Origin: Alphaproteobacteria bacterium
Lineage (GTDB): Bacteria; Pseudomonadota; Alphaproteobacteria; GCA-2731375
Assembly: GCA_965232515.1 (NCBI GenBank)
Contig: CBDDPY010000002.1
Location: 3,616,001 to 3,680,000, forward strand
Reading direction: 5' to 3'
Length of the DNA stretch: 64,000 nt
Part shown: in pieces, positions 2,978 to 34,271 of the stretch
How the letters are laid out: the number at the start of each line of letters is the position of its first letter
Position numbering within the stretch: position 1 is the first letter of the stretch
The notes under the pieces: generated by a model
The model's input: the letters and a program-made list of their open reading frames with translations, nothing else
Databases searched by the model: none
Told to the model about the DNA's origin: nothing
Translations under genes and position numbers: made by a program

Positions 2978-3105
2978 AGAGTCATCATAACTTGGCATTT
3001 GTCGTCATTACTACCGCTGTTTAGGCTTTCCCGGCCCAATGGGACACCGGCCCAATCCAGGCGCCGATCCGACCCGGCGGCAGCCCACAACAGGGAGCAA
3101 CGACA

Positions 3106-4068
3106 ATGGCAAAACATCGATTTCTGTTGCCCGCCATCCTCGGCGGCTTGGCAGTCATGGCGCTGGGACAGGCAGCGCTCGCCGACAGCTATCCATCGAA
3201 ACCGATCAAGCTGATCGTGCCGTACTCGGCCGGCGGCGGCGGCGACACCACGTCGCGCTTCATCGCCGATATGGCCAGCGACATCATGGGCGTGAACTTC
3301 GTGGTCGAGAACAAGACCGGCGGCGGCGCCACCATCGGCATCGGCGCGGTCGCCAAGTCCAAGCCGGACGGCTACACCATCGGCTTCATCTCGACCAGCC
3401 CGATCACCATCCGCACGCACATGATGAAGGCGCCCTACGATCCGCTGACCGATCTGACCTATATCGGCCAGTTCGTCTCCAGCCCGGTGCCCGTCGTCGT
3501 GCGCGCCGACAGCGACTGGCAGACGCTGGACGACCTGATGGCCTTCGCCAAGGCCAATCCCGGCGGCCTGCGCTGGTCGGCGGCCGTGCAGCGCGGCGGC
3601 CCGCACGTCGCCGTGCAGGCGGCCTTCGCCCAGGAGGGCGCGCAAACCACGTTCATCCCATCGAAAGGCGGCGCCAAGGCGCTCGCCGCATTGCTGGGCA
3701 AAACCATCGACATGGCCGCGATCACCGATTTCGCGGCACCGCTCGCCGACGGCAAGGTGCGGCTGCTGGCCGAGACCACGCCGAACCGCAATCCGGCCGC
3801 GCCCGACATGCCGACGCTGACCGAAGCCGGCTATCCGCTGGCCCCGGCAATCTTCTTCGGCCTCGCCGGACCGGCCGGCCTGCCCAAGGACGTCACCGAA
3901 AAGTGGGACACCGTGCTGGCCGAGATCGTCGCCTCGGCGAAGTTCCAGGACCTGCTGCAAAAGCTGAAGGCGACACCGAAGTTCGCCAACTCGGCCGATT
4001 TCACCAAGACCGTGCACGCCGATTACAAGGCCGCCGGCGAGGTGTTGTCGAAGATCGATCTGAATTGA
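3106..4068 (+). CDS. tctC: Tripartite tricarboxylate transporter substrate-binding protein (TctC/Bug)
   Basis: Signal peptide; YPSKPIKLIVPYSAGGGGD, VENKTGGGATIG and KPDGYT motifs. Confidence 0.93.
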   Translation: MAKHRFLLPAILGGLAVMALGQAALADSYPSKPIKLIVPYSAGGGGDTTSRFIADMASDIMGVNFVVENKTGGGATIGIGAVAKSKPDGYTIGFISTSPITIRTHMMKAPYDPLTDLTYIGQFVSSPVPVVVRADSDWQTLDDLMAFAKANPGGLRWSAAVQRGGPHVAVQAAFAQEGAQTTFIPSKGGAKALAALLGKTIDMAAITDFAAPLADGKVRLLAETTPNRNPAAPDMPTLTEAGYPLAPAIFFGLAGPAGLPKDVTEKWDTVLAEIVASAKFQDLLQKLKATPKFANSADFTKTVHADYKAAGEVLSKIDLN

Positions 4069-15892: not shown

Positions 15893-17017
15893 TCAGCGCA
15901 TCGTGGCAATGCTGCGGCGGAAGCGGAGGGCGGCGAAGGCGAAGAACAGGCCGCCGATGCCGACCACCAGCCCGAATTTCGGCCAGACGATGTCGAGCCC
16001 GGCGCCGCGATAGAGGATCGACTGGGCGAAATTGACGAAGTGCACTGACGGCACCGCCTGCATGATCGCTTGAAGCTGCTTGGGCTGGCTTTCGATCGGG
16101 GTCTCGGCGCCCGACAGCATCATCATCGGCAGCGCCACCAGGATGAACAGCAGGCCGAACTGCGGCATCGACCGCGCGATGGTGCCGAGAAAGATGCCGA
16201 GCGCCGTGGCGAAGAACAGGTAGAGCACCGTGCCGGTCAGGAACAGCGGCCGCGAGCCGGCGACCGGCACCTGCAGCAGCGTCTCGACCACCACCCACAG
16301 CGACACCGCGACGGCGACCAGGATCACAAGACCGTTCGCCCAGACCTTGGCCATCATGATCTCGAACGGCGTCAGCGGCATGACCAGCAGATGCTCGATG
16401 GTGCCATGCTCGCGCTCGCGGATAAGCGCCGCGCCGGTCAGCACGATCGACAGCATGGTCACGTTGTTGATGATCTCCATGACGCTGGTGAACCAGGCGC
16501 CGGTCAGGTTCGGGTTGAAGGCATAGCGCACAGTCAGGCCGACGGGCGGTCCGTGAGGCGGTTGGGCGCCGGCGACGAACCGTGCGATCTCCTGATGCAG
16601 GATGTTGCCGATATAACCGTTGCCGATGCCCGCCTGCATCATCACGGTGGCGTCGATATTGACCTGCAGCCCGGGCTGGCTGCCGCTCAGGATATCGGCC
16701 TGGAACCCGCTCGGGATCACCAACACGAAGGTGTAGCGGCCCGAATCCAGCACCGCGTCGATGTCCGCGAAGTCGATCATCTCAGGTTCGTTGAAATAGG
16801 GCGGCAGGAAGGCCTCGCGGATCCGGGTCGAGAGCTGTGACCGGTCTTCGTCGACGATGGCGATGGCGCCGTTGTTGAGGTCATGCGACATGCCGGTCGC
16901 CGCGCTGTAAACCGACAGCGTGAAGGCCCAAATAATCAGCCCGAGCAGCACCGGGTCGCGGCGCAGGCTGAACAGCTCCTTTATGCCGAGGCGGTAGATG
17001 TTGCTGAGCGTCCGCAT
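15893..17017 (-). CDS. yhhJ: ABC-2 permease YhhJ-like
   Basis: LGIKELFSL.RD, IVDEDRSQLS, REREHGTIEHLLVMP motifs. Confidence 0.88.
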   Translation of the reverse strand: MRTLSNIYRLGIKELFSLRRDPVLLGLIIWAFTLSVYSAATGMSHDLNNGAIAIVDEDRSQLSTRIREAFLPPYFNEPEMIDFADIDAVLDSGRYTFVLVIPSGFQADILSGSQPGLQVNIDATVMMQAGIGNGYIGNILHQEIARFVAGAQPPHGPPVGLTVRYAFNPNLTGAWFTSVMEIINNVTMLSIVLTGAALIREREHGTIEHLLVMPLTPFEIMMAKVWANGLVILVAVAVSLWVVVETLLQVPVAGSRPLFLTGTVLYLFFATALGIFLGTIARSMPQFGLLFILVALPMMMLSGAETPIESQPKQLQAIMQAVPSVHFVNFAQSILYRGAGLDIVWPKFGLVVGIGGLFFAFAALRFRRSIATMR

Positions 17018-24885: not shown

Positions 24886-27800
24886 TCAATAGCGCCGCTC
24901 GAGCGTGACGCCGATGTCGCTGTCGGCGGTGGCGCCGACCGAGCTTTCGAGCGACAGCCAGGGCAGCACTTTGTACTCCAGCACCGCGCGCGAGCTTTGC
25001 GCCGTCAGGCCCTGGCGCATGCCGAGATAGACGTCGTCGGTGATGTACTTGCCGGCCCTCAGTGTCGCGCTCCCGACGCCTTCGCCCTCGCCGCTCTCGA
25101 TATCGAGCGCGTCCAGTCCCAACGACCGCCGGATGTCGCTGACGATGCCGCCGGAGCCGAGCTGGCCCGACAGCACCAGCGCCGACTGGCCAAGCTGAAA
25201 GGCCTGGACGGCGCTGAGCGAGCCGACATCCTTGCCGAACAGCACGCGCGACAGAATTTCATCCTGCGGCAGCGGCGGCGTCGACAGCAAGGTGACCTCC
25301 GGGCTCAGCACCGGCCCGTCGATGCGCACTTCGGCCGTGATGTCGGCGGCCTGCGCCGCCGCCTGCAAATCGAGATCGGCGTCGACATTGCCCCGCTCCG
25401 TTGTCGACACGTCGATCAGGCCGCGCTGGAACTCGAACGACCGGCCGGCCAGCGCAAACGTGCCGCGTACGATCTCGAGCTGGCCGTTGACGACGGGCCG
25501 GCTGAGCCAGCCGCCGACCTGGAAGCCGCCCCGCCACTCGGAATCGAGCCCCCGCCCGCGCACGAACACCTGGCCCGGCAAGTCGACCGTCACATCCAGT
25601 CTGACGTCGCCCTCGGCCTCATCCGTCGACGACGGAGCCGCCTCCGTCTCTCCAGTCTGACGGTCCGGCGGCAAGTTGATCTCGGTCACCTCGATGCTGC
25701 TGACGCTGACCGGCAGCTTGCTCGGGATCTCGATATCGGCCTTGTCCACGGTCAACGTGCCCGACAACAGCAGGTCGCGAAACGGCCCGGCCAGCCGCAG
25801 GTCGCCGCTCGTCGTGGCATGGACCTCGTCGATCCGGGCGATGCTCAGTGTCGTCAGGTTCACGGACAGATCGACGCTCCCGATGCCCCCTTCGCCGAAC
25901 GTGACAGCGCCACCGCCCGAGAGACGCCCGTTACTGTCGTCGGTCGCGGTCAGGTTCTGGAGCAGCAAGCGCCGCTCGTCGCCGGCGAGCCGCAGCCCGG
26001 CATCGCGTAGCACGAAACCGCTGGCGTCGTTGGCGTAGAAGCCATCCGTCAGGCCGCCCTCGCCCTCGACACGCGGCCGCGCCAACGTGCCTGCAACCGA
26101 GATCTCCCCGGCGAACCGTCCGGTCATGCTGTGGCCGTCGGGCGCGAACAACGGACTCAACCGCGCGATGTCGCCGTCGATCGTCAGGCGTACGTCCAAC
26201 GGCTCGGTCTCGGGCAGAGTGAAGCGATAGGCCACGAGATCGCCCCGCAGCGGCAGACTGCCCGCCACTTGCGCGGTCAGGCCATCGACCCCTTCGATGC
26301 CGGCCTGAAGCGTCGCCTGCCCATCGCGCCAGGCACTCTGCGCCGAGACGCCGATGGGCGGCAAGTCGCCTCCCGCCTGGTCGAGCAGCGTCAAGTCGGC
26401 GATCCTTAGCTCGGCCGTCAGATCCGGGGCCGTCGGCGTGCCGGTCAGCTTGACTTGTGCCGTCGCCGTGCCGTCGATCGCCGGCCCGCCGATCAACGCC
26501 GCGAACGGTCCGACCGTCAAGGCGTCGACCGCGATATCCGCCGCGACCCGTTCGGTGCCCAAGTCCAGACCGCCGCGCACCCGGCCGGCGCCGATGCCGA
26601 GATCCAGGTCCGCGACCGCAATGGCCGTGTCCGTTCGCGTCATCCGGACCGGCGCGGCCAGGCCTAGCGCTTCCCCAGCGAGACGACCGTTGAGCCGGTC
26701 CACGACCGCTTCCACCGTCTGCTCGCGCCAGCCAATGGCGCCACCGGCTTCCAAAACGGCGTCTAGGCTTTCGGGTCCGTTGACCCGCAGATTGAAATCC
26801 AGCGCATTGCCCGCGAGCGCAGCGCCGATGCCCAAGTCTTGCAGGCGCTGACCGCCGACATCGATTTCCCAGGCGACGGCCTGCAAGTCGCCCGCCGGCG
26901 CGTCGAACGGCCGCCGCAGATTGGCGCTCGCCTGCAGGCCGGCCGCGGTCAGTTCGTCCAGCCGCGGCGACATGGCCGTAACTTTGGCGGCCAGCGTCTG
27001 CACATCCGCATCGGCGGCCAGCGTCGCGTCGATCTCGGCGCTGCCGTCGAGATCGACGCCGGCCAGCGACGAAAGCGCCTGCAGGCGCGGCAGGCGCGCC
27101 TTGATCGGTCCGCTGACCAACCCGCGCGTCGTGTCGACCGTCAGATCCGCATCGGCGCTAAGGGCGTCACCGCTCACCTGAAGGCCGGCGATCTCGACGA
27201 TGTTGCCGTCGAGACGGAACGCACCTTGCGCATCCGCCGCCAGATCCCGCCAGGCCGCCGACACCGTCACCTCGCCGGCCGGCGCCGACACCGGCTTCGG
27301 CACATCAGCTGTAACGGAAACCGTGACGCCGTCGATGTCGGCAATCCGGATCTGCCGCCCGTCGGCATTCAGGACAATTGCCGGATCGGCGGGATCGCCC
27401 CGCAATCGCGCCCGGCCATTGACCGCGCCGGCCACATCGATGCCCAGCGCCGGCGTCAGCGGGGCCAGATCGGCAACCGTGACAGCCAGATCCGCCGTGA
27501 GGTCGACAAAGGCGCCATCGACGGCGGCATTGCCGGTCAGCGTAACGCCGCCGCCCGCGAGGCGCAGGGTCTCGACGCGCAATCCGGCGACCGCCGCATA
27601 GCGCGCCGATGCCCGATAGCCCACCTCTTCGCCGACAAGGGCGTCGACTGTTGCGATGCCGGTCGCGAACCGCTGCACCTCGCCGTCGAGCGCCATGCCG
27701 ATCTCGCCGTCGACGTTGCCCTCGATCCGGACGTTGGCGGCCGCGCTGCCCCGCAGATCCGGCAGGTCGTCCTTGGCGATTGTGGCAATGTCGGTAATCT

Positions 27801-29241
27801 CGACCGCGGCGGTCAGGTCCAACGCGCCGTCGGCCTCGATACGACCCGAGGCCGTCGCCGACAGCGGCGCCGCCGTTACGTTGATGGACGCGATCTGCAC
27901 GCCGCCGGCCGCCTCGACCGTCATCGTGTAATCGCCATTCACATCGCCGGCGATCACGGGCGGCGGCACGCCCTCGAGCGTCAGTCCGTCCGCCGCAAAG
28001 CGGCCGCGCAAGCCGATCTCCCCGCCGTCCGCCGCCTTGAAAACGGCATTGCCTTCGGTGCCAAACGTCCGCGCCACGAATGCGTCGACGCCGGCGTCCT
28101 GCGCGGTCACGGCATAGACGGCGGAAATATTCTCCAGATCGCCGTCGAGTTCGACCGCCGCGTCAAACGCGCCCTGCAGCGGCATCTGGGTCAGATCGCT
28201 GAACGGCGCGAGGCGGCCGGCGATTGTGACCTTTCCGGACAGGCGCTCGCCGATCGGATCAACGCGGCCCGAGGCAGCGGCGCGCAGCGCTTCGGTCTCG
28301 ATCCGGACGCTGTCGATATCGATCGGTCCGGTAGCGGAACGCGTCAGCGCCGCCTCGAACGAGATGTTCGGCCCGGCCACGGGCCGGTATGCAATCGGCA
28401 ACGCCGCCGCGATTGCGGCGTCGCCGGCCAACTGCGCCCGCAGGCCGTTTTCCACCCGCGCCAGCGTCAGTTGGGCCCGCGCCGAGGCGACGTCGCCGGC
28501 ATCGGCGTCGAGGGTGAGTGTCAGGTCGTCGACCGGACCCTCGCCCTTGGCCCGCAGACGCACCGCGGGCAGCCCCGGCAAATCAAGCAGGCGCGCCAGC
28601 AAACCGCCTTCCGGCTCCTCGGCCTCGACATCAAGCGACAAGCGGTTGGCGACCGCATCGTGTGTCAGCCGGACATCCGCCCTTGCCGGCGCATCCGTGC
28701 GGCGCAGCTTTGCCTCGACCGCGATGGCGCGGCCATCGCGCGGAATGTCGAGCGTGGCCTCGAGCGTCAATTCGGCCGGCACGCCCAGCACATCCACCCC
28801 AATATCGATCACCGGCACGGACAGATCGTTGACGGCGACATCGACCGGCGGCAGCAGGGCGGCCATATCGACCGGATCGTCGCCGGCGCCGGGCTCCGCC
28901 GATGGTTGCCGCTCGACGGTGATCCGCGCGGCCTGCAAGACGTCGATATCCAAACGACCCCGCAGCAGTCCGCTCGGCGACCAGTCGAGGCGCAGCTCGT
29001 CCGCCCGCAACCACACGCCATCCGGATCGCGCAGCTCGAGCCGCTCGACGGTCAGCCGGTCGGGCACGCGACCCGAGAGACCGGTGACGCGCGCATCTTC
29101 CGCTAAAAACCGGTTGATCAGGCCCTCGACGGCCGCACGCCCCGGCCCCGTATTCGCCGCCGCGAGCAGCAACAGCGGCAGCAAAACGACGAAAGCAAGG
29201 ACGCCCGAAACCCAAAAGGCGCGCCGCCTGATGCGGGTCAT
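24886..29241 (-). CDS. tamB: Translocation/assembly module TamB (DUF490)
   Basis: N-terminal TM, 1451 aa beta-rich, VFVRGRGLDSEW, S.PPLPQDEILSRVLFGK, GKYITDDVY. Confidence 0.92.
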   Translation of the reverse strand: MTRIRRRAFWVSGVLAFVVLLPLLLLAAANTGPGRAAVEGLINRFLAEDARVTGLSGRVPDRLTVERLELRDPDGVWLRADELRLDWSPSGLLRGRLDIDVLQAARITVERQPSAEPGAGDDPVDMAALLPPVDVAVNDLSVPVIDIGVDVLGVPAELTLEATLDIPRDGRAIAVEAKLRRTDAPARADVRLTHDAVANRLSLDVEAEEPEGGLLARLLDLPGLPAVRLRAKGEGPVDDLTLTLDADAGDVASARAQLTLARVENGLRAQLAGDAAIAAALPIAYRPVAGPNISFEAALTRSATGPIDIDSVRIETEALRAAASGRVDPIGERLSGKVTIAGRLAPFSDLTQMPLQGAFDAAVELDGDLENISAVYAVTAQDAGVDAFVARTFGTEGNAVFKAADGGEIGLRGRFAADGLTLEGVPPPVIAGDVNGDYTMTVEAAGGVQIASINVTAAPLSATASGRIEADGALDLTAAVEITDIATIAKDDLPDLRGSAAANVRIEGNVDGEIGMALDGEVQRFATGIATVDALVGEEVGYRASARYAAVAGLRVETLRLAGGGVTLTGNAAVDGAFVDLTADLAVTVADLAPLTPALGIDVAGAVNGRARLRGDPADPAIVLNADGRQIRIADIDGVTVSVTADVPKPVSAPAGEVTVSAAWRDLAADAQGAFRLDGNIVEIAGLQVSGDALSADADLTVDTTRGLVSGPIKARLPRLQALSSLAGVDLDGSAEIDATLAADADVQTLAAKVTAMSPRLDELTAAGLQASANLRRPFDAPAGDLQAVAWEIDVGGQRLQDLGIGAALAGNALDFNLRVNGPESLDAVLEAGGAIGWREQTVEAVVDRLNGRLAGEALGLAAPVRMTRTDTAIAVADLDLGIGAGRVRGGLDLGTERVAADIAVDALTVGPFAALIGGPAIDGTATAQVKLTGTPTAPDLTAELRIADLTLLDQAGGDLPPIGVSAQSAWRDGQATLQAGIEGVDGLTAQVAGSLPLRGDLVAYRFTLPETEPLDVRLTIDGDIARLSPLFAPDGHSMTGRFAGEISVAGTLARPRVEGEGGLTDGFYANDASGFVLRDAGLRLAGDERRLLLQNLTATDDSNGRLSGGGAVTFGEGGIGSVDLSVNLTTLSIARIDEVHATTSGDLRLAGPFRDLLLSGTLTVDKADIEIPSKLPVSVSSIEVTEINLPPDRQTGETEAAPSSTDEAEGDVRLDVTVDLPGQVFVRGRGLDSEWRGGFQVGGWLSRPVVNGQLEIVRGTFALAGRSFEFQRGLIDVSTTERGNVDADLDLQAAAQAADITAEVRIDGPVLSPEVTLLSTPPLPQDEILSRVLFGKDVGSLSAVQAFQLGQSALVLSGQLGSGGIVSDIRRSLGLDALDIESGEGEGVGSATLRAGKYITDDVYLGMRQGLTAQSSRAVLEYKVLPWLSLESSVGATADSDIGVTLERRY

Positions 29242-29247
29242 TGCCGG

Positions 29248-31086
29248 CTAAAACGCCTGTCCGAGACTGACATAGATCTGAAAATCGTCGTCGACGCTGC
29301 GCTTGTCCAGGGGCACCGCGACGTCGAGACGCAATGGCCCCACCGGCGTGAAGTAGCGGAATCCGACGCCGGCGCCGAAAAACAGCTCCTCGTCGAGGTC
29401 GGGCAGGTTGTCCTCGTAGACGTTGCCGCCATCGAGAAACACGACGCCGCCGAGCGTCTCGGTAATCCGGGCCCGAAATTCGATCGAGCCGGCGAGCAGC
29501 GCCCGGCCGCCCAATGGGTCGTCCTCCGCATCCAGCGGACCGACGAGCTGAAACTCGTAACCGCGAATGGTGTCGGCGCCACCGGCATAGAAACGCTTGT
29601 CCGACGGCACACCGCGACGGCTTTCGCCGACGATGCTGCCAATGGTGCCGCGGCCGGCGAGGATGAACCGCTTGTCGCGGTCGAGCGCCAGATGCGCGCT
29701 GTCCGAGAACCGCAGCACGGCGAAATTGGCATCGGTGTCGCCGATGCCGGTATAGGGCGTCGCCGAGAGCTGCGCCCGGCCGCCGCTGGTCGGGTTCAGA
29801 AGATCGTCCGTGGTGTCGCGGATCAGCGCCAGCGGCAGGCCGATCAGATTGAATTTTTCGTCGCCGAACTCGTCCTCCAGACGGGTGCGCTCGATGCTGA
29901 CGCCGGCGGAGCCCCGGAACGCTTCGCCAAGCGGCCGGTCGATCACCGCCGAGGCGCCGACCGTGTCGGCGTCGAACGCCTCCGGCCGCTCGCGCGACGC
30001 CGTCGCGCTCAAGATCAGCGACTGGCTGTCGGCCAAAAACGCCGGAATGCGCAGCGATGTCTCCAGCGACTGCGCCTCGGAAGCGGCCACGGCCTGCACG
30101 CGCAGGCGTTCGGCCGAGCCGAAGAAGTTGCGATGCTCCCAGAACGCGGTTGCGCCGAGTCCTTCGCTGGTCGATGCCTTCAGACCCGCGCCGACCGAGC
30201 GTGCCGCGTCCTCGATAAGCGCAATGCGCATGGGCGCCCGACCGTCCGGCGGCCCGGTCTGCGGATAGCTGACCGACACGGACGAAAACAGGCCGCTCCG
30301 CGACAGCGCCCGCCGCGTCGCCCGGACCTGCCGCAGATCGAACGGCGCGCCCTCCTGCCACTGCACGTCGCGGCGCACGACCTCGTCATCCACCGCCGCC
30401 AACCCGGCGATCTCGGTACCGCCGAATACCGTGTAGGCCCCCGGCGCCAGGACGAACGAGACCGAGACTGATGTCATGGCATGGTCCACCACGACCTCGC
30501 GGTCCGCGACCACCGCATAGGGATAGCCGGTCCAGCCCAGACGTTCGATCAGGCGCTGCTGCGCAGCCAGAATGTCCTCGGCCCGGGACCGGGCGCCCGG
30601 CAGCAGGCCCAGTTCGTCATAGTTCAAACCGCCGAGATCGGGCGTCGGCCCATCGCCGCGAAAGCGGATATCGACGCCTTCCAGGCTGAACGGCGGTCCG
30701 GTCTCGACATCGAGCGTCACCGCGAACGCGCCATCGGCCTCGACGGGCGGCTGCAGTTGAAACGCCACCGTGCCGGCATAATAGCCCTCGGCCCGCAACA
30801 CCTCGCGCAGGCGCGCGGTGTCGTCCCGCGCCCGCCGCCGCAGCACGCCTTCCGTCGCCACCGGCTCGCCCTTGCGGCGTTCCAGCTCGGACACCGCCAG
30901 CAGCAGCTCGGCCAAGCGGTCGTTCTCGATCTCCGAGAGCGTCACGTCATAAGTGATCTCGGCATGTGCCGGTCCCGGTGTCAGAACCAGCAGGACACCG
31001 ATGACGCACCGCGCGATCAGACGGCGAAATCGACGCGGCTCTGTGCTTCGCAAAACCAAACTCCGGCGGTATCGACGCCGTTCCAC
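29248..31086 (-). CDS. tamA: Autotransporter assembly factor TamA (Omp85 family)
   Basis: POTRA motifs (LRAEGYY), RFYAGG..IRGY, GVGFRYFTPVGPLRLDVAVPL, C-terminal YVSLGQAF; start uncertain. Confidence 0.92.
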   Translation of the reverse strand: MERRRYRRSLVLRSTEPRRFRRLIARCVIGVLLVLTPGPAHAEITYDVTLSEIENDRLAELLLAVSELERRKGEPVATEGVLRRRARDDTARLREVLRAEGYYAGTVAFQLQPPVEADGAFAVTLDVETGPPFSLEGVDIRFRGDGPTPDLGGLNYDELGLLPGARSRAEDILAAQQRLIERLGWTGYPYAVVADREVVVDHAMTSVSVSFVLAPGAYTVFGGTEIAGLAAVDDEVVRRDVQWQEGAPFDLRQVRATRRALSRSGLFSSVSVSYPQTGPPDGRAPMRIALIEDAARSVGAGLKASTSEGLGATAFWEHRNFFGSAERLRVQAVAASEAQSLETSLRIPAFLADSQSLILSATASRERPEAFDADTVGASAVIDRPLGEAFRGSAGVSIERTRLEDEFGDEKFNLIGLPLALIRDTTDDLLNPTSGGRAQLSATPYTGIGDTDANFAVLRFSDSAHLALDRDKRFILAGRGTIGSIVGESRRGVPSDKRFYAGGADTIRGYEFQLVGPLDAEDDPLGGRALLAGSIEFRARITETLGGVVFLDGGNVYEDNLPDLDEELFFGAGVGFRYFTPVGPLRLDVAVPLDKRSVDDDFQIYVSLGQAF

Positions 31087-31280
31087 CGCCCGGCTGCCGC
31101 GACGCCGCCAACGACCGATTCGGCCGAATCATCGCAAAACGCAGCGCCCGTTACCCGCGGTCCCAACTCCATCCCACCGGCAATAGCAGGTCGCATCGCC
31201 GTCCGACAAGCGTGCGACACGTCCTGTGCAGCGCCGGCAAGCCGGTCAGGCGCACCGGTTTCGTTCGTGGAATGTGGGAA

Positions 31281-31331
31281 AAGGATTGGCGCGCTCGGGA
31301 AGATTCGAACTCCCGACCCCCAGATTCGTAG
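31281..31331 (-). repeat. att site: duplicated 3' half of tRNA-Arg (51-bp direct repeat with 32646-32696)
   Basis: aaggattggcgcgctcgggaagattcgaactcccgacccccagattcgtag is identical at both positions; identity ends in the anticodon loop. Confidence 0.93.
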
Positions 31332-31511
31332 GTTTGAGATCGAGCTAGCGAAATCAATGGGTTAGCCGTTTCTTGCCCCGTTCTTGCTCCGACTATCATC
31401 TCTAAACTGACGATGCAGCCAGAGCGCATTCAAACACGTCTGCAAGAATCTGAAAAAAATTTGGCGAAGCACTGTTGTCAGTTCAACCAGCATCCCCAAC
31501 ATTGAGGCAAG

Positions 31512-31661
31512 TTGGCGCGAAAATCGCACCAACCGAGAAAAGGAAAAAAGAAATGGTAGTATAAACACGGCTATAAGCCGAAGAGAGGTCGAAGGCGGAT
31601 TGTCTTTGATCTGGAAGTGCGGATTCGCGGTTTAACGATTACGATCCGCATAAACTACTAG
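31512..31661 (+). pseudogene. Basic 49-codon small ORF interrupted by an in-frame TAG
   Basis: GAGG RBS, TTG start: MARKSHQPRKGKKKW*YKHGYKPKRGRRRIVFDLEVRIRGLTITIRINY*; followed by a terminator-like hairpin. Confidence 0.4.
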
Positions 31662-31664
31662 CCT

Positions 31665-31712
31665 GGCGAGGCCATGCTCGGGTCACGCTGTGAGTATGGC
31701 CACGCCTTCTTT
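31665..31712 (+). terminator. Hairpin + U-tract (putative intrinsic terminator)
   Basis: ggcg-a-ggccatgctc...gagtatggcc-a-cgcc followed by ttcttt. Confidence 0.5.
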
Positions 31713-31890
31713 AGTCATTTATATCTCAATGCCGCGTTGACAACACCTGTCTTTATTAAGAAGTTGCAGTCTACCAGTAAGGCGACTGTGGTCGACCACC
31801 AGTCATTCTTAAAGCCGAAATCGACGCTTAAGACCGCTCGACACCCTTAGTGCTGTGACCTGGTGCGAGCAAGACGTCGGGCCGGCCGGC

Positions 31891-32001
31891 TTAGGGGTTG
31901 GCGATCGCGGCAAGACGCCGGCGCAAGATCTCGGCCAGCAGGTAAACACTTCGGTCCGGCCTCGGCTGGATCGCCGCCCTCGTCTGGTCCTCCACGGCCA
32001 T
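31891..32001 (-). CDS. Possible 36-aa peptide MAVEDQTRAAIQPRPDRSVYLLAEILRRRLAAIANP
   Basis: ATG-TAA frame just downstream of the 147-aa cargo ORF; weak RBS. Confidence 0.25.
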   Translation of the reverse strand: MAVEDQTRAAIQPRPDRSVYLLAEILRRRLAAIANP

Positions 32002-32034
32002 CCAGAAACCTGCTCAAGAGACCTCGACGGGCAG

Positions 32035-32478
32035 TCAATAGACGTCTCGAAAAAACTGCAAGATCGCTATCACCAGTAGCCCAAAAGCGGCCGCGGCAGC
32101 AGCCCGTGCAGCTCGCGCGGCGGAACGCGCTGTATCGTGCTGTTCCTCGGCAAGCTGAAGCTGCTTTGCCGCTGTCTCGCGCTGCGCGGCTTCACGCCGG
32201 TCCTCGAGCTCGAGAGCAAAAGCCTCACGGCGGTCCTGCATTCCATCTTCGAACTTGCGCCGCCCAACCTCTCGCCGTTCGGCCACGTTCTCGAGCTCTA
32301 TCCGGTCTCGATGTTGACGGCGGTAGAGCTCGGCTTTGCTCTTCGCAGCACGAGCCGGCGCCCGCTCGTCGCTATCGATATAATAGTGAAGCTCGGCAAG
32401 CGTCAGGTCTGCATAGTTCCCATCTACTTCATCGATAGGGCTTCGTCTGATCTCAAAATCATCGCGTCCACTCGTCAT
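32035..32478 (-). CDS. Hypothetical coiled-coil protein with C-terminal membrane anchor (island cargo)
   Basis: Strong GGAGAGG RBS; E/R-rich helical body ending in AAAAAAFGLLVIAILQFF. Confidence 0.7.
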   Translation of the reverse strand: MTSGRDDFEIRRSPIDEVDGNYADLTLAELHYYIDSDERAPARAAKSKAELYRRQHRDRIELENVAERREVGRRKFEDGMQDRREAFALELEDRREAAQRETAAKQLQLAEEQHDTARSAARAARAAAAAAFGLLVIAILQFFRDVY

Positions 32479-32651
32479 CAATCACCTCTCCGCTTGCCCC
32501 GTCCCTTGCTCCGTAAAATTTTGGCATGGAAACGCAAGCGCCAAAATCCGCGAGATTTGCCCCGTCAAAACGGAGCAAGCGTACGGACAAAGTTCCGGCG
32601 CCGTTTCAGATGGCAAAACCACTAAGTCGTTGGGAATGTTCGGAGAAGGAT

Positions 32652-32728
32652 TGGCGCGCTCGGGAAGATTCGAACTCCCGACCCCCAGATTCGTAGTCTG
32701 GTGCTCTATCCAGCTGAGCTACGAGCGC
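32652..32728 (-). tRNA. tRNA-Arg(ACG)
   Basis: GCGCTCGTAGCTCAGCTGGATAGAGCACCAGACTACGAATCTGGGGGTCGGGAGTTCGAATCTTCCCGAGCGCGCCA: 77 nt, anticodon ACG, encoded CCA. Confidence 0.97.
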
Positions 32729-33026
32729 GCATCCCTTACGTTCCGCGCATCTTTGTCACGGAACCGCAAAGACGAGACTACCTACTGAAAACTTAACGGT
32801 ATGGCAAGATCCGCGTGGCTGAGATGCAACACGAATTGTGTTTGGAATTCGTCGCTTGTCCGCTGTGGGCGGTTTGGCTAATATCACGCCGCCTTAAAAG
32901 ATCAAAAGGTTAGCGTCGTTTTTTCGCACGCCGTTTTGCCGCCTGATGTTTTGTCGCCCAAAGATGAGACCGGCTTGACCCGCGCCACTGACAACGGCTC
33001 CGTAGATTGGGCTGGGGGAACCTATT

Positions 33027-34271
33027 TTGCATAGATCGACACTCGCTCTGTTCAGCGTGGCAGCGCTGCTGTCCGGCTGTTCGTTTGCATCCGATGCCTT
33101 GTGGCCGTCGCTGACCGGCGACGAACCGGCCGGCGAGGCTTCGCAGCAAGTCCCGATTCAACCCAGCGCCGCAGAGGCGAACCAGCAGCCGACGCTGGGT
33201 CCGACGGCGCAGGCGGCACCCGCGCCGCCCGGCCTGCCGGCGCCGCCACCGGCGCTCGGCACGACCAACTTCGCGCCGCAGCCGATCACCAACACGCCGA
33301 CCACCGGCACCTTCGTCGGCCAAAAGGTGGGCCAGTTGCGCGGCGAGCTGCGCCAGCTGCAGGGCCGCCTGAGCCAGCAGAACAGCGAACTGCAGCAGAT
33401 CCGTCAGACCACGACGCAGAACGCGCAGCGTTATCACGGCACCGTCGCCGCCGTCACGGCGCGGCTGCAGCTCGGCACCACGCCCGGCAATCCGGTGCTG
33501 GTCAGCCAGTGGAACGCCGCCCAGGCCGAGCTCGACCGGCTGAACGCCGATATCGCGGCCATGAACTCGCTCGCCAACCTGGTGGCGTCCAATTCGTCGC
33601 TCGCGGCCTACATCCTCGAATCGGCCCGCGCGTCCTACAGCCTGTCGGGCGCCATTGATGAGGATCACCGCCAGCTCGCGATCCTGGAGGACGAGACCAA
33701 CCGCACCGTGGTGCTGGTCGACCGGCTGCTGGCCGAGCTGAACGAAGACGTGTCGCGCCAGACCGCCTATGTCGGCAACGAACGCGCCAACCTGACGACG
33801 CTCTCGAACTCGATCAAGAACGGCGAGCTGTTCGGCAGCAGTCTGCTGGCGCGCGCCTACAGCACCGGCAGCGCCGGTGCGGGCGCGGGCGCCGGTATCG
33901 CCCCGGCCGCGGCGGCGCCGTCGCCGTTCGCGACCTCGTCGACGCCGCGCAGCGGCTTCAGCACCACGGGCCGGCGGCCGCTGGTGGTGATCCGCTTCGA
34001 CCGGCCCGATGTGCCCTACGAGCAGGCGCTTTACACCGCGGTGTCGCGTACGCTCGACCGCCGTCCGGACGCCCAGTTCGATCTGGTCGCGGTGGTGCCG
34101 GCGGTCGGCACCGCGTCCGAGGTCGCCGCGACCCAGTCACAGTCCAAGCGCAACGCCAACCGGGTGCTGCGCACGCTGACCGACATGGGCCTGCCGGCCA
34201 GCCGCGTGTCGCTGGCGTCCACTACCAGCCCGAACGCGTCCTCCAGCGAGGTGCACATCTACCTCCGCTGA
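33027..34271 (+). CDS. Hypothetical lipoprotein (Pro-rich linker, coiled coil, possible OmpA-like C-terminal fold)
   Basis: Lipobox LSGC; Q-rich coiled coil; C-terminal LVVIRFD...ANRVLRTLTDMGLPASRV. Confidence 0.8.
   Translation: MHRSTLALFSVAALLSGCSFASDALWPSLTGDEPAGEASQQVPIQPSAAEANQQPTLGPTAQAAPAPPGLPAPPPALGTTNFAPQPITNTPTTGTFVGQKVGQLRGELRQLQGRLSQQNSELQQIRQTTTQNAQRYHGTVAAVTARLQLGTTPGNPVLVSQWNAAQAELDRLNADIAAMNSLANLVASNSSLAAYILESARASYSLSGAIDEDHRQLAILEDETNRTVVLVDRLLAELNEDVSRQTAYVGNERANLTTLSNSIKNGELFGSSLLARAYSTGSAGAGAGAGIAPAAAAPSPFATSSTPRSGFSTTGRRPLVVIRFDRPDVPYEQALYTAVSRTLDRRPDAQFDLVAVVPAVGTASEVAATQSQSKRNANRVLRTLTDMGLPASRVSLASTTSPNASSSEVHIYLR

Follow-up and report, generated by a model that had tools for sequence, protein, structure and literature searches.

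A 1.3-kb islet at a tRNA-Arg gene has a lambda-like attachment-site layout and is probably the remnant of a ~38-kb integrative element

The tRNA-Arg gene and its displaced 3' fragment

The window, that is, the whole 64,000-nt stretch of DNA analysed here, contains tRNA-Arg(ACG) as its sole tRNA gene, on the minus strand at 32652-32728. This gene is present in one copy genome-wide, among the five tRNA-Arg genes of the 7.39-Mb genome. The 3' part of the working gene (32646-32696, minus strand) constitutes the proximal copy of a core repeat, and the distal copy, at 31281-31331 on the same strand, corresponds to a displaced tRNA-Arg(ACG) 3' fragment running from the anticodon loop to CCA plus 6 nt. 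Together they form a 51-bp direct repeat, identical at 51 of 51 positions. A previous sequence-only reading of this DNA had the length and the coordinates right and gave 1365 bp, which is the spacing of the copies, as the enclosed length; 1314 bp lie between them. Its placement of the repeat in the 3' half of the tRNA also stands, but a repeat "ending in the anticodon loop" needs amending: its start is at raw tRNA position 33, where the loop begins, and it therefore covers the entire 7-nt anticodon loop. The intact tDNA and a displaced fragment on the same strand, 1365 bp downstream of its 3' end, correspond to the tDNA configuration sought by Islander.

Beyond the CCA, a looser likeness of both repeat copies extends ~27 nt further, and this extension resembles the flank downstream of tRNA-Arg in the same-genus genome G001, as does the flank below 31280. 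The GC content is 0.48-0.52 at 31300-31899 vs 0.65-0.72 in the flanks, and the 1314 bp between the repeat copies are, judged by this composition, foreign. The chromosomal flanks comprise tamB and an Omp85/POTRA gene on the left, and a solute-binding protein gene and a peptidase gene further right. The TamB-like gene (1451 aa) and the Omp85/POTRA gene (612 aa), a translocation-and-assembly pair on the minus strand at 24886-31086, end 195 nt from the displaced tRNA fragment; the adjacency of this pair to tRNA-Arg is absent from G001 and from a further genome, G008.

Candidate arm-type and IHF sites at both ends

Scanning with the degenerate 10-mer YTTGYYCCGW revealed six matches in the 64-kb window, all of them in the ends of the element (plus-strand starts at 31372, 31383, 32493, 32505 and 32556, minus-strand at 32570), compared with a shuffle mean of 1.49 and with 0 of 100 shuffles reaching six. 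Genome-wide, the motif has 87 matches in 7.39 Mb, and at least two fall within 150 nt only at both element ends. On the left, two putative arm-type sites, CTTGCCCCGT and CTTGCTCCGA, stand in tandem (31372-31392, plus strand, 11 nt start to start), 40 nt from the core and with no supported gene close by. On the right, CTTGCCCCGT and CTTGCTCCGT likewise form a tandem of putative arm-type sites (32493-32514, plus strand, 12 nt start to start), which ends a few bases ahead of the ribosome-binding site of the cargo gene. It is accompanied by a putative inverted pair (32556-32579) in which TTTGCCCCGT (plus, 32556) faces CTTGCTCCGT (minus, 32570-32579), and the good motif copies of the right end, four in all, lie no more than 153 bp from the core. 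The six copies are where they had been reported, but a seventh, the degenerate third copy beside the inverted pair (32583-32592), has two mismatches and falls at background level; two-mismatch sites in the window number 87 vs 128 expected. Degenerate inner copies at 31905 and 31918, with two mismatches each, are likewise at background level and were rejected. The sequence GCAAGAYNYCGG, present three times (31869, 31910 and 31923; window 31865-31934) and straddling block A and the 64-nt junction described below, has GCAAG in common with the reverse of the arm motif and is not above background.

A perfect IHF consensus, AATCAATGGGTTA (31352-31364, plus strand), is found at the left end, between core and motif pair. 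It is the only match to WATCAANNNNTTR in the 64-kb window, and at least one such match occurs somewhere in 21 of 100 shuffles. The weaker inverted IHF site that had been proposed at 32623-32635 did not hold up: it has two mismatches in the ATCAA core and adds nothing, because its stretch resembles the chromosomal tRNA flank of a relative.

A lambda-type attP consists of a core, IHF sites and arm-type sites, and the ends of the element resemble it: next to the core come an IHF consensus and a tandem of 10-mers at one end, and at the other several 10-mers within ~150 bp. An attP restored from the two ends would measure ~276 bp with arms and core, which is the scale of a lambda-type site. The ends differ from lambda attP in that the sites are proposed from sequence and that the integrase that would read them is not in this genome. 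Among the integrase sublocation classes that Williams is said to have distinguished in 2002, crossover in the anticodon loop is reportedly typical of one class. We infer that the repeated 10-mers are integrase arm sites, and the pattern of an anticodon-loop core, an IHF consensus and 10-mer clusters on both sides supports a lambda-like att layout of the element ends. The view of the sequence-only reading, an integrated foreign element without an integrase, yet with such a layout, is supported.

Gene content of the element

The part of the element at 31393-31839 is an AT-rich spacer (GC ~0.48) without a supported gene or RNA; a scan that included it found no promoter-like site and two terminator-like sites vs 2.4 expected. 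The integrase profile PF00589 has no match in the window and 13 matches genome-wide. Pfam searches of 15 stop-to-stop frames of the element with E up to 5 returned nothing, an excisionase-like domain included, and the best tblastn match of 16 integrases had an E of 0.021, which is not significant for that many queries. By these three approaches the element contains, as had been claimed, no integrase, nor any integrase fragment. The traits of phage satellites (an integrase of their own together with replication or helper-hijacking genes) are lacking as well, with no such domains detected and 1314 bp in total. A transposable element or MITE was considered and rejected, the ends being a 51-bp direct tRNA repeat without terminal inverted repeats.

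The single credible gene of the element is the cargo gene ORF148 (147 aa; 32035-32478 with the stop included, minus strand), whose ATG at 32478 is preceded by GGAGAGG 6 nt upstream. Of the "one or two tiny cargo genes" proposed before, one is therefore credible and none is supported in the AT-rich spacer. In the structural model (mean pLDDT 82.5), residues 41-146 of the product form a single long helix with a hydrophobic stretch at its end, and the product is predicted to be a tail-anchored helical membrane protein. An exhaustive search of 1.84 billion representatives yielded four distant homologues (E 1.7e-12 to 1.6e-5), which align along the conserved helical core and relative to three of which ORF148 is full length; no match at E up to 0.01 was found among 2452 word-sharing candidates. 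The best homologue, P0001, has 48% identity and comes from contigs of which the longest is 37,631 nt.

Among 401 genomes of the class, ORF148 is found only in this genome, plus a weak match in G395 (E 8.6e-5). Viral and metagenome scans with the family alignment and with the homologues P0002 and P0003 gave none; with P0001 the metagenome scan gave none, and the IMG/VR scan reported four stretches encoding a relative and 0 loci. A tblastn search with ORF148 against phages found none, comparison with Pfam, PHROGs, PADLOC and NCBIfam gave nothing near the cut-off, and in the Atlas the protein falls in unnamed clusters only.

A 37.6-kb element at the same tRNA repeat in a relative

Three public runs of one study contain the stretch, with shares of 0.98, 0.98 and 0.72, and may be its source. 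The relative considered here comes from X1 and X3, two runs whose labels name other organisms, the small-share runs X4-X17 being left out. Contigs of four runs were aligned to window 30000-34000, and the element of the relatives was compared by alignment coordinates. In the chromosomal flanks, X1/X3 differ from the window 122 times over 942 nt of tamA (the Omp85 gene) and 83 times over 1303 nt on the right.

The X1 contig (37,612 nt) is collinear with the window element, and in X3 this arrangement is spread over two contigs (22,937 and 14,690 nt). The first 188 nt of the X1 contig correspond to window 32677-32491 with 27 differences and one gap, and are followed by 488 nt in place of the window's 492 nt of the cargo gene. 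Just downstream of the cargo gene, block B (31953-31998) comprises 46 nt in common with the relatives' element, with three differences. At the adjoining junction (31889-31952), the presumed site of an internal deletion, the window has 64 nt and the relative 36,736 nt. Block A (31840-31888), whose 49 nt recur at the far end of the 37.6-kb element of the relatives, has eight differences, and the X1 contig ends 105 nt past it, the last 37 nt being back on the core repeat. From the record coordinates, ~68 nt separate the repeat from block A in the relatives, and their extra DNA begins ~117 nt from the displaced tRNA fragment. At 85% likeness, the ~447 nt at window 31393-31839 are not seen in the relatives' element, and the window's 64-nt junction DNA is absent beside either junction in the relative.

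Since the right arm, the cargo gene homologue and both blocks are collinear, a sister lineage carries a 37.6-kb element at the same tRNA repeat. The identity between the window and the relatives' element is ~85% in the right arm, 84-93% in the blocks and 48% for the cargo protein. Because the common parts are thus a mosaic, the ancestor of the window's element would have been a different family member and not the X1/X3 element itself. To the left of window 31280, X1/X3 have maybe ~4.6 kb from the Omp85 gene to the tRNA repeat vs the window's 309 nt (from the joint at 30970 to 31280); this estimate comes from record coordinates, and additional DNA may separate tamA from the displaced fragment in the relatives.

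tRNA-Arg sites in the genus and family

In the same-genus genome G001 (81% complete), the right flank is 91% identical, and tRNA-Arg is followed directly by PepSY_TM, TonB-receptor and FecR genes. The site is therefore empty in this genome, and the occupancy of tRNA-Arg varies. Stray tRNA-Arg 3' fragments occur in other genomes of the family, and three were fetched (G030, G006 and G007). In all three, the stray fragment is followed after 94-157 nt by the start of an integrase gene, which encodes Arm-DNA-bind_3 and Phage_integrase domains and reads away from the fragment. These DUF4102-type (Arm-DNA-bind_3) islands share the target tRNA with the element, and two of the three fragments end at the same anticodon-loop base as the window repeat. 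They differ in the repeat motif: at locus L091, the three short tandem repeats that separate tRNA fragment and integrase gene are of the GGTAGCTA type, not YTTGYYCCGW. Because this 94-157 nt layout is found in three of three family islands, the integrase of the relatives is expected near the start of their 36.7 kb; by this analogy it would begin ~117 nt from the repeat, where the extra DNA starts.

On contig C5 of G030 (locus L089), tRNA-Arg 3' fragments at 3083-3124 and 16869-16915 lie 13.8 kb apart. The segment between them encodes a hydantoinase, a monomeric isocitrate dehydrogenase, a gamma-glutamyltranspeptidase and an amidase, with no integrase among the 10 long ORFs scanned, and a DUF4102-type integrase gene follows the second fragment. 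Here an integrase-less segment and an island may stand in tandem.

Searches for further copies and for a helper

Searches of the genome itself with the whole element, with either arm and with blocks A and B found no second copy. There is no second arm-motif cluster in the genome, and neither an internal tRNA fragment nor a cluster marks a second att site in the window. Integrases beside the same arm motif, for which the sequence-only reading had suggested a search, did not turn up: none of the 13 genomic PF00589 matches has the motif nearby. Between the four DUF4102-like integrases of this genome and the two family integrases sharing the boundary (G030 and G006), identity reaches 32% at most, the G007 integrase is at most 47% identical to any integrase of this genome, and the tRNAs near its integrase loci are tRNA-Ser and tRNA-Leu only.

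Outside this genome, element DNA was found in none of the other 60 of 61 genomes searched (the relatives and this genome), apart from a chance-level match of 34 nt in G033, and in the entire order (33 genomes, one family) it is absent from all 32 others. A blastn search against plasmids and phages gave none, and the viral and metagenome collections contain no further copy. The exact tandem motif pair has 17 loci in genome_contigs, about the chance expectation and in no case with a tRNA or further motif clustering, and one, then six loci in viral_contigs, all unrelated. Elements with the same ends and different cargo, another expectation of the earlier reading, were met in none of the genome, family, plasmid, phage, viral and metagenome searches.

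Origin of the islet

The islet is probably a decayed integrative element of the CIME type, in which an internal deletion of ~36.7 kb took away the integrase and left both att sites. In such a scenario, a ~38-kb family member, prophage or island, would have entered tRNA-Arg(ACG) by means of a tyrosine integrase, with strand exchange in the anticodon loop. The element's own copy of the tRNA 3' part would now complete the gene, with the original 3' part displaced by 1365 bp. A later internal deletion, with its scar within 31889-31952, would have removed ~36.7 kb, presumably together with the integrase. What remains would be two att arms, with the repeated CTTGCYCCGT sites and the left IHF site, the AT-rich spacer and an intact end gene. 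Such an islet would have no mobility of its own, and excision would be possible only with a cognate integrase, for example that of an incoming full-size family member.

We infer that the change was a deletion here rather than an insertion in the relative, and the missing 36.7 kb would, by analogy with the family islands, have held the integrase. The outcome named beforehand as refuting a satellite is largely what was observed: relatives have a large element at this place (37.6 kb, with 36,736 bases vs 64), and homologues with variable cargo did not turn up, but integrase fragments, also named there, are not present inside the islet. The contrary view taken there, of a satellite mobilised in trans rather than a product of decay, is disfavoured by the large collinear element at the same tRNA in the relative and by the single copy here. 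Against decay speak the lack of an integrase fragment marking the deletion, the distal repeat, which is unconstrained and still matches at 51 of 51 positions, and the intact arm sites and cargo gene, as do the mosaic of common parts and the ~447 nt of the window that the relatives' element does not display at 85% likeness. The intact repeat, arm sites and cargo gene fit either a recent deletion or maintenance by selection.

The best-surviving alternative, which we consider unlikely, is a working mini element: a 1.3-kb unit with one cargo gene, moved in trans by the integrase of a full-size family member and maintained as a minimal hitchhiker of ~38-kb tRNA-Arg elements, perhaps travelling in tandem with its helper. 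The complete att layout at both ends with its 51/51 core repeat is compatible with this, as is the intact cargo gene, with its strong ribosome-binding site and its full length relative to three of four homologues. The related large element of the sister lineage could supply the enzyme, and integrase-less elements with attL and attR are described as being moved by a related element (PMC5704250). However, the element is single-copy in a genome with no resident integrase beside the same motif; it is found in 0 of 32 other genomes of the family and order and in none of the plasmid, phage, viral and metagenome scans. Homologues with other cargo did not turn up, and the 37.6-kb form was the sole related element encountered.

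It is quite improbable that the small form is the older one and that a 36.7-kb mobile element was inserted in the relative between blocks A and B, or in tandem. The replacement of 64 nt by 36,736 nt gives by itself no direction. Tandem build-up at tRNA sites is described as common (PMC5704250), the Islander table has 125 tandems (PMC4383910), and the two tRNA-Arg fragments of G030, 13.8 kb apart with an integrase after the second only, are in line with it. A plain insertion would, however, have kept the window's 64 nt, which are absent beside both junctions of the relative at 85% likeness. The start of the extra DNA ~117 nt from the fragment, near the integrase start of all three family islands (94-157 nt), and the lack of an internal tRNA fragment or motif cluster as a second att site in the window also argue against it. 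Finally, it is very doubtful that the repeated 10-mers, instead of being arm sites, act as operators through which a regulator controls the cargo gene or genes now lost: the 32493-32514 pair does end a few bases before the cargo gene's ribosome-binding site and the inverted pair at 32556-32579, with its 4-nt gap, is like a dimer operator, but the same tandem pair recurs in the same orientation at the far end, 40 nt from the core, after the IHF consensus and away from supported genes, and L091 has a comparable set of three tandem short repeats between tRNA fragment and integrase gene.

Relation to known systems

As a probable decayed integrative element, the islet is of a kind already known and is notable only for its small size and clean layout. 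Integration at chromosomal dif is the mark of Xer-dependent integrative elements (IMEX); the islet here occupies a tRNA gene. Cis-mobilizable elements (CIMEs), as described for streptococcal ICE-related elements, have lost the integration genes and kept attL and attR (PMC5704250). Like a CIME, which has no integration or transfer genes, the islet encodes no recombinase, its one gene belonging to an unnamed family, and has putative att sites in the form of an exact core repeat and motif clusters at both ends. Unlike them, it measures only 1.3 kb, its parent was probably a ~38-kb element and not a known ICE, and no related helper resides in the same genome.

Displaced tRNA fragments are described as pervasive (PMC9897764). 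In the Islander account, 2083 of 3919 islands have an anticodon-centred attP site, and an integrase gene is required inside the island (PMC4383910). With such islands the islet shares a regenerated tRNA gene, a displaced 3' fragment in the same orientation and an anticodon-loop core; it differs in having no tyrosine integrase gene inside, and islets like this one would be filtered out by Islander because the tool demands that gene.

On the decay reading, the islet illustrates how far a large integrative element can be reduced, with hardly anything left beyond the two attachment sites. For an uncharacterised family of tRNA-Arg integrases, it also presents a compact candidate set of core, IHF and arm sites, and could therefore serve as a ready-made substrate for the integrase of the relatives once this is cloned. 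Its practical value is modest, and it opens no new question.

Other observations in the genome

On genome contig C2, inverted pairs of TTGTTCCG, 63-64 nt apart, occur near 556178, 3380508, 3710493 and 6664083. These four loci are outside the window and look like a dispersed repeat unrelated to the element. The genome contigs C3 (5516 bp) and C4 (10862 bp) have GC contents of 0.46 and 0.42 vs 0.655 for the chromosome, and could be small foreign replicons, phage DNA or contamination.
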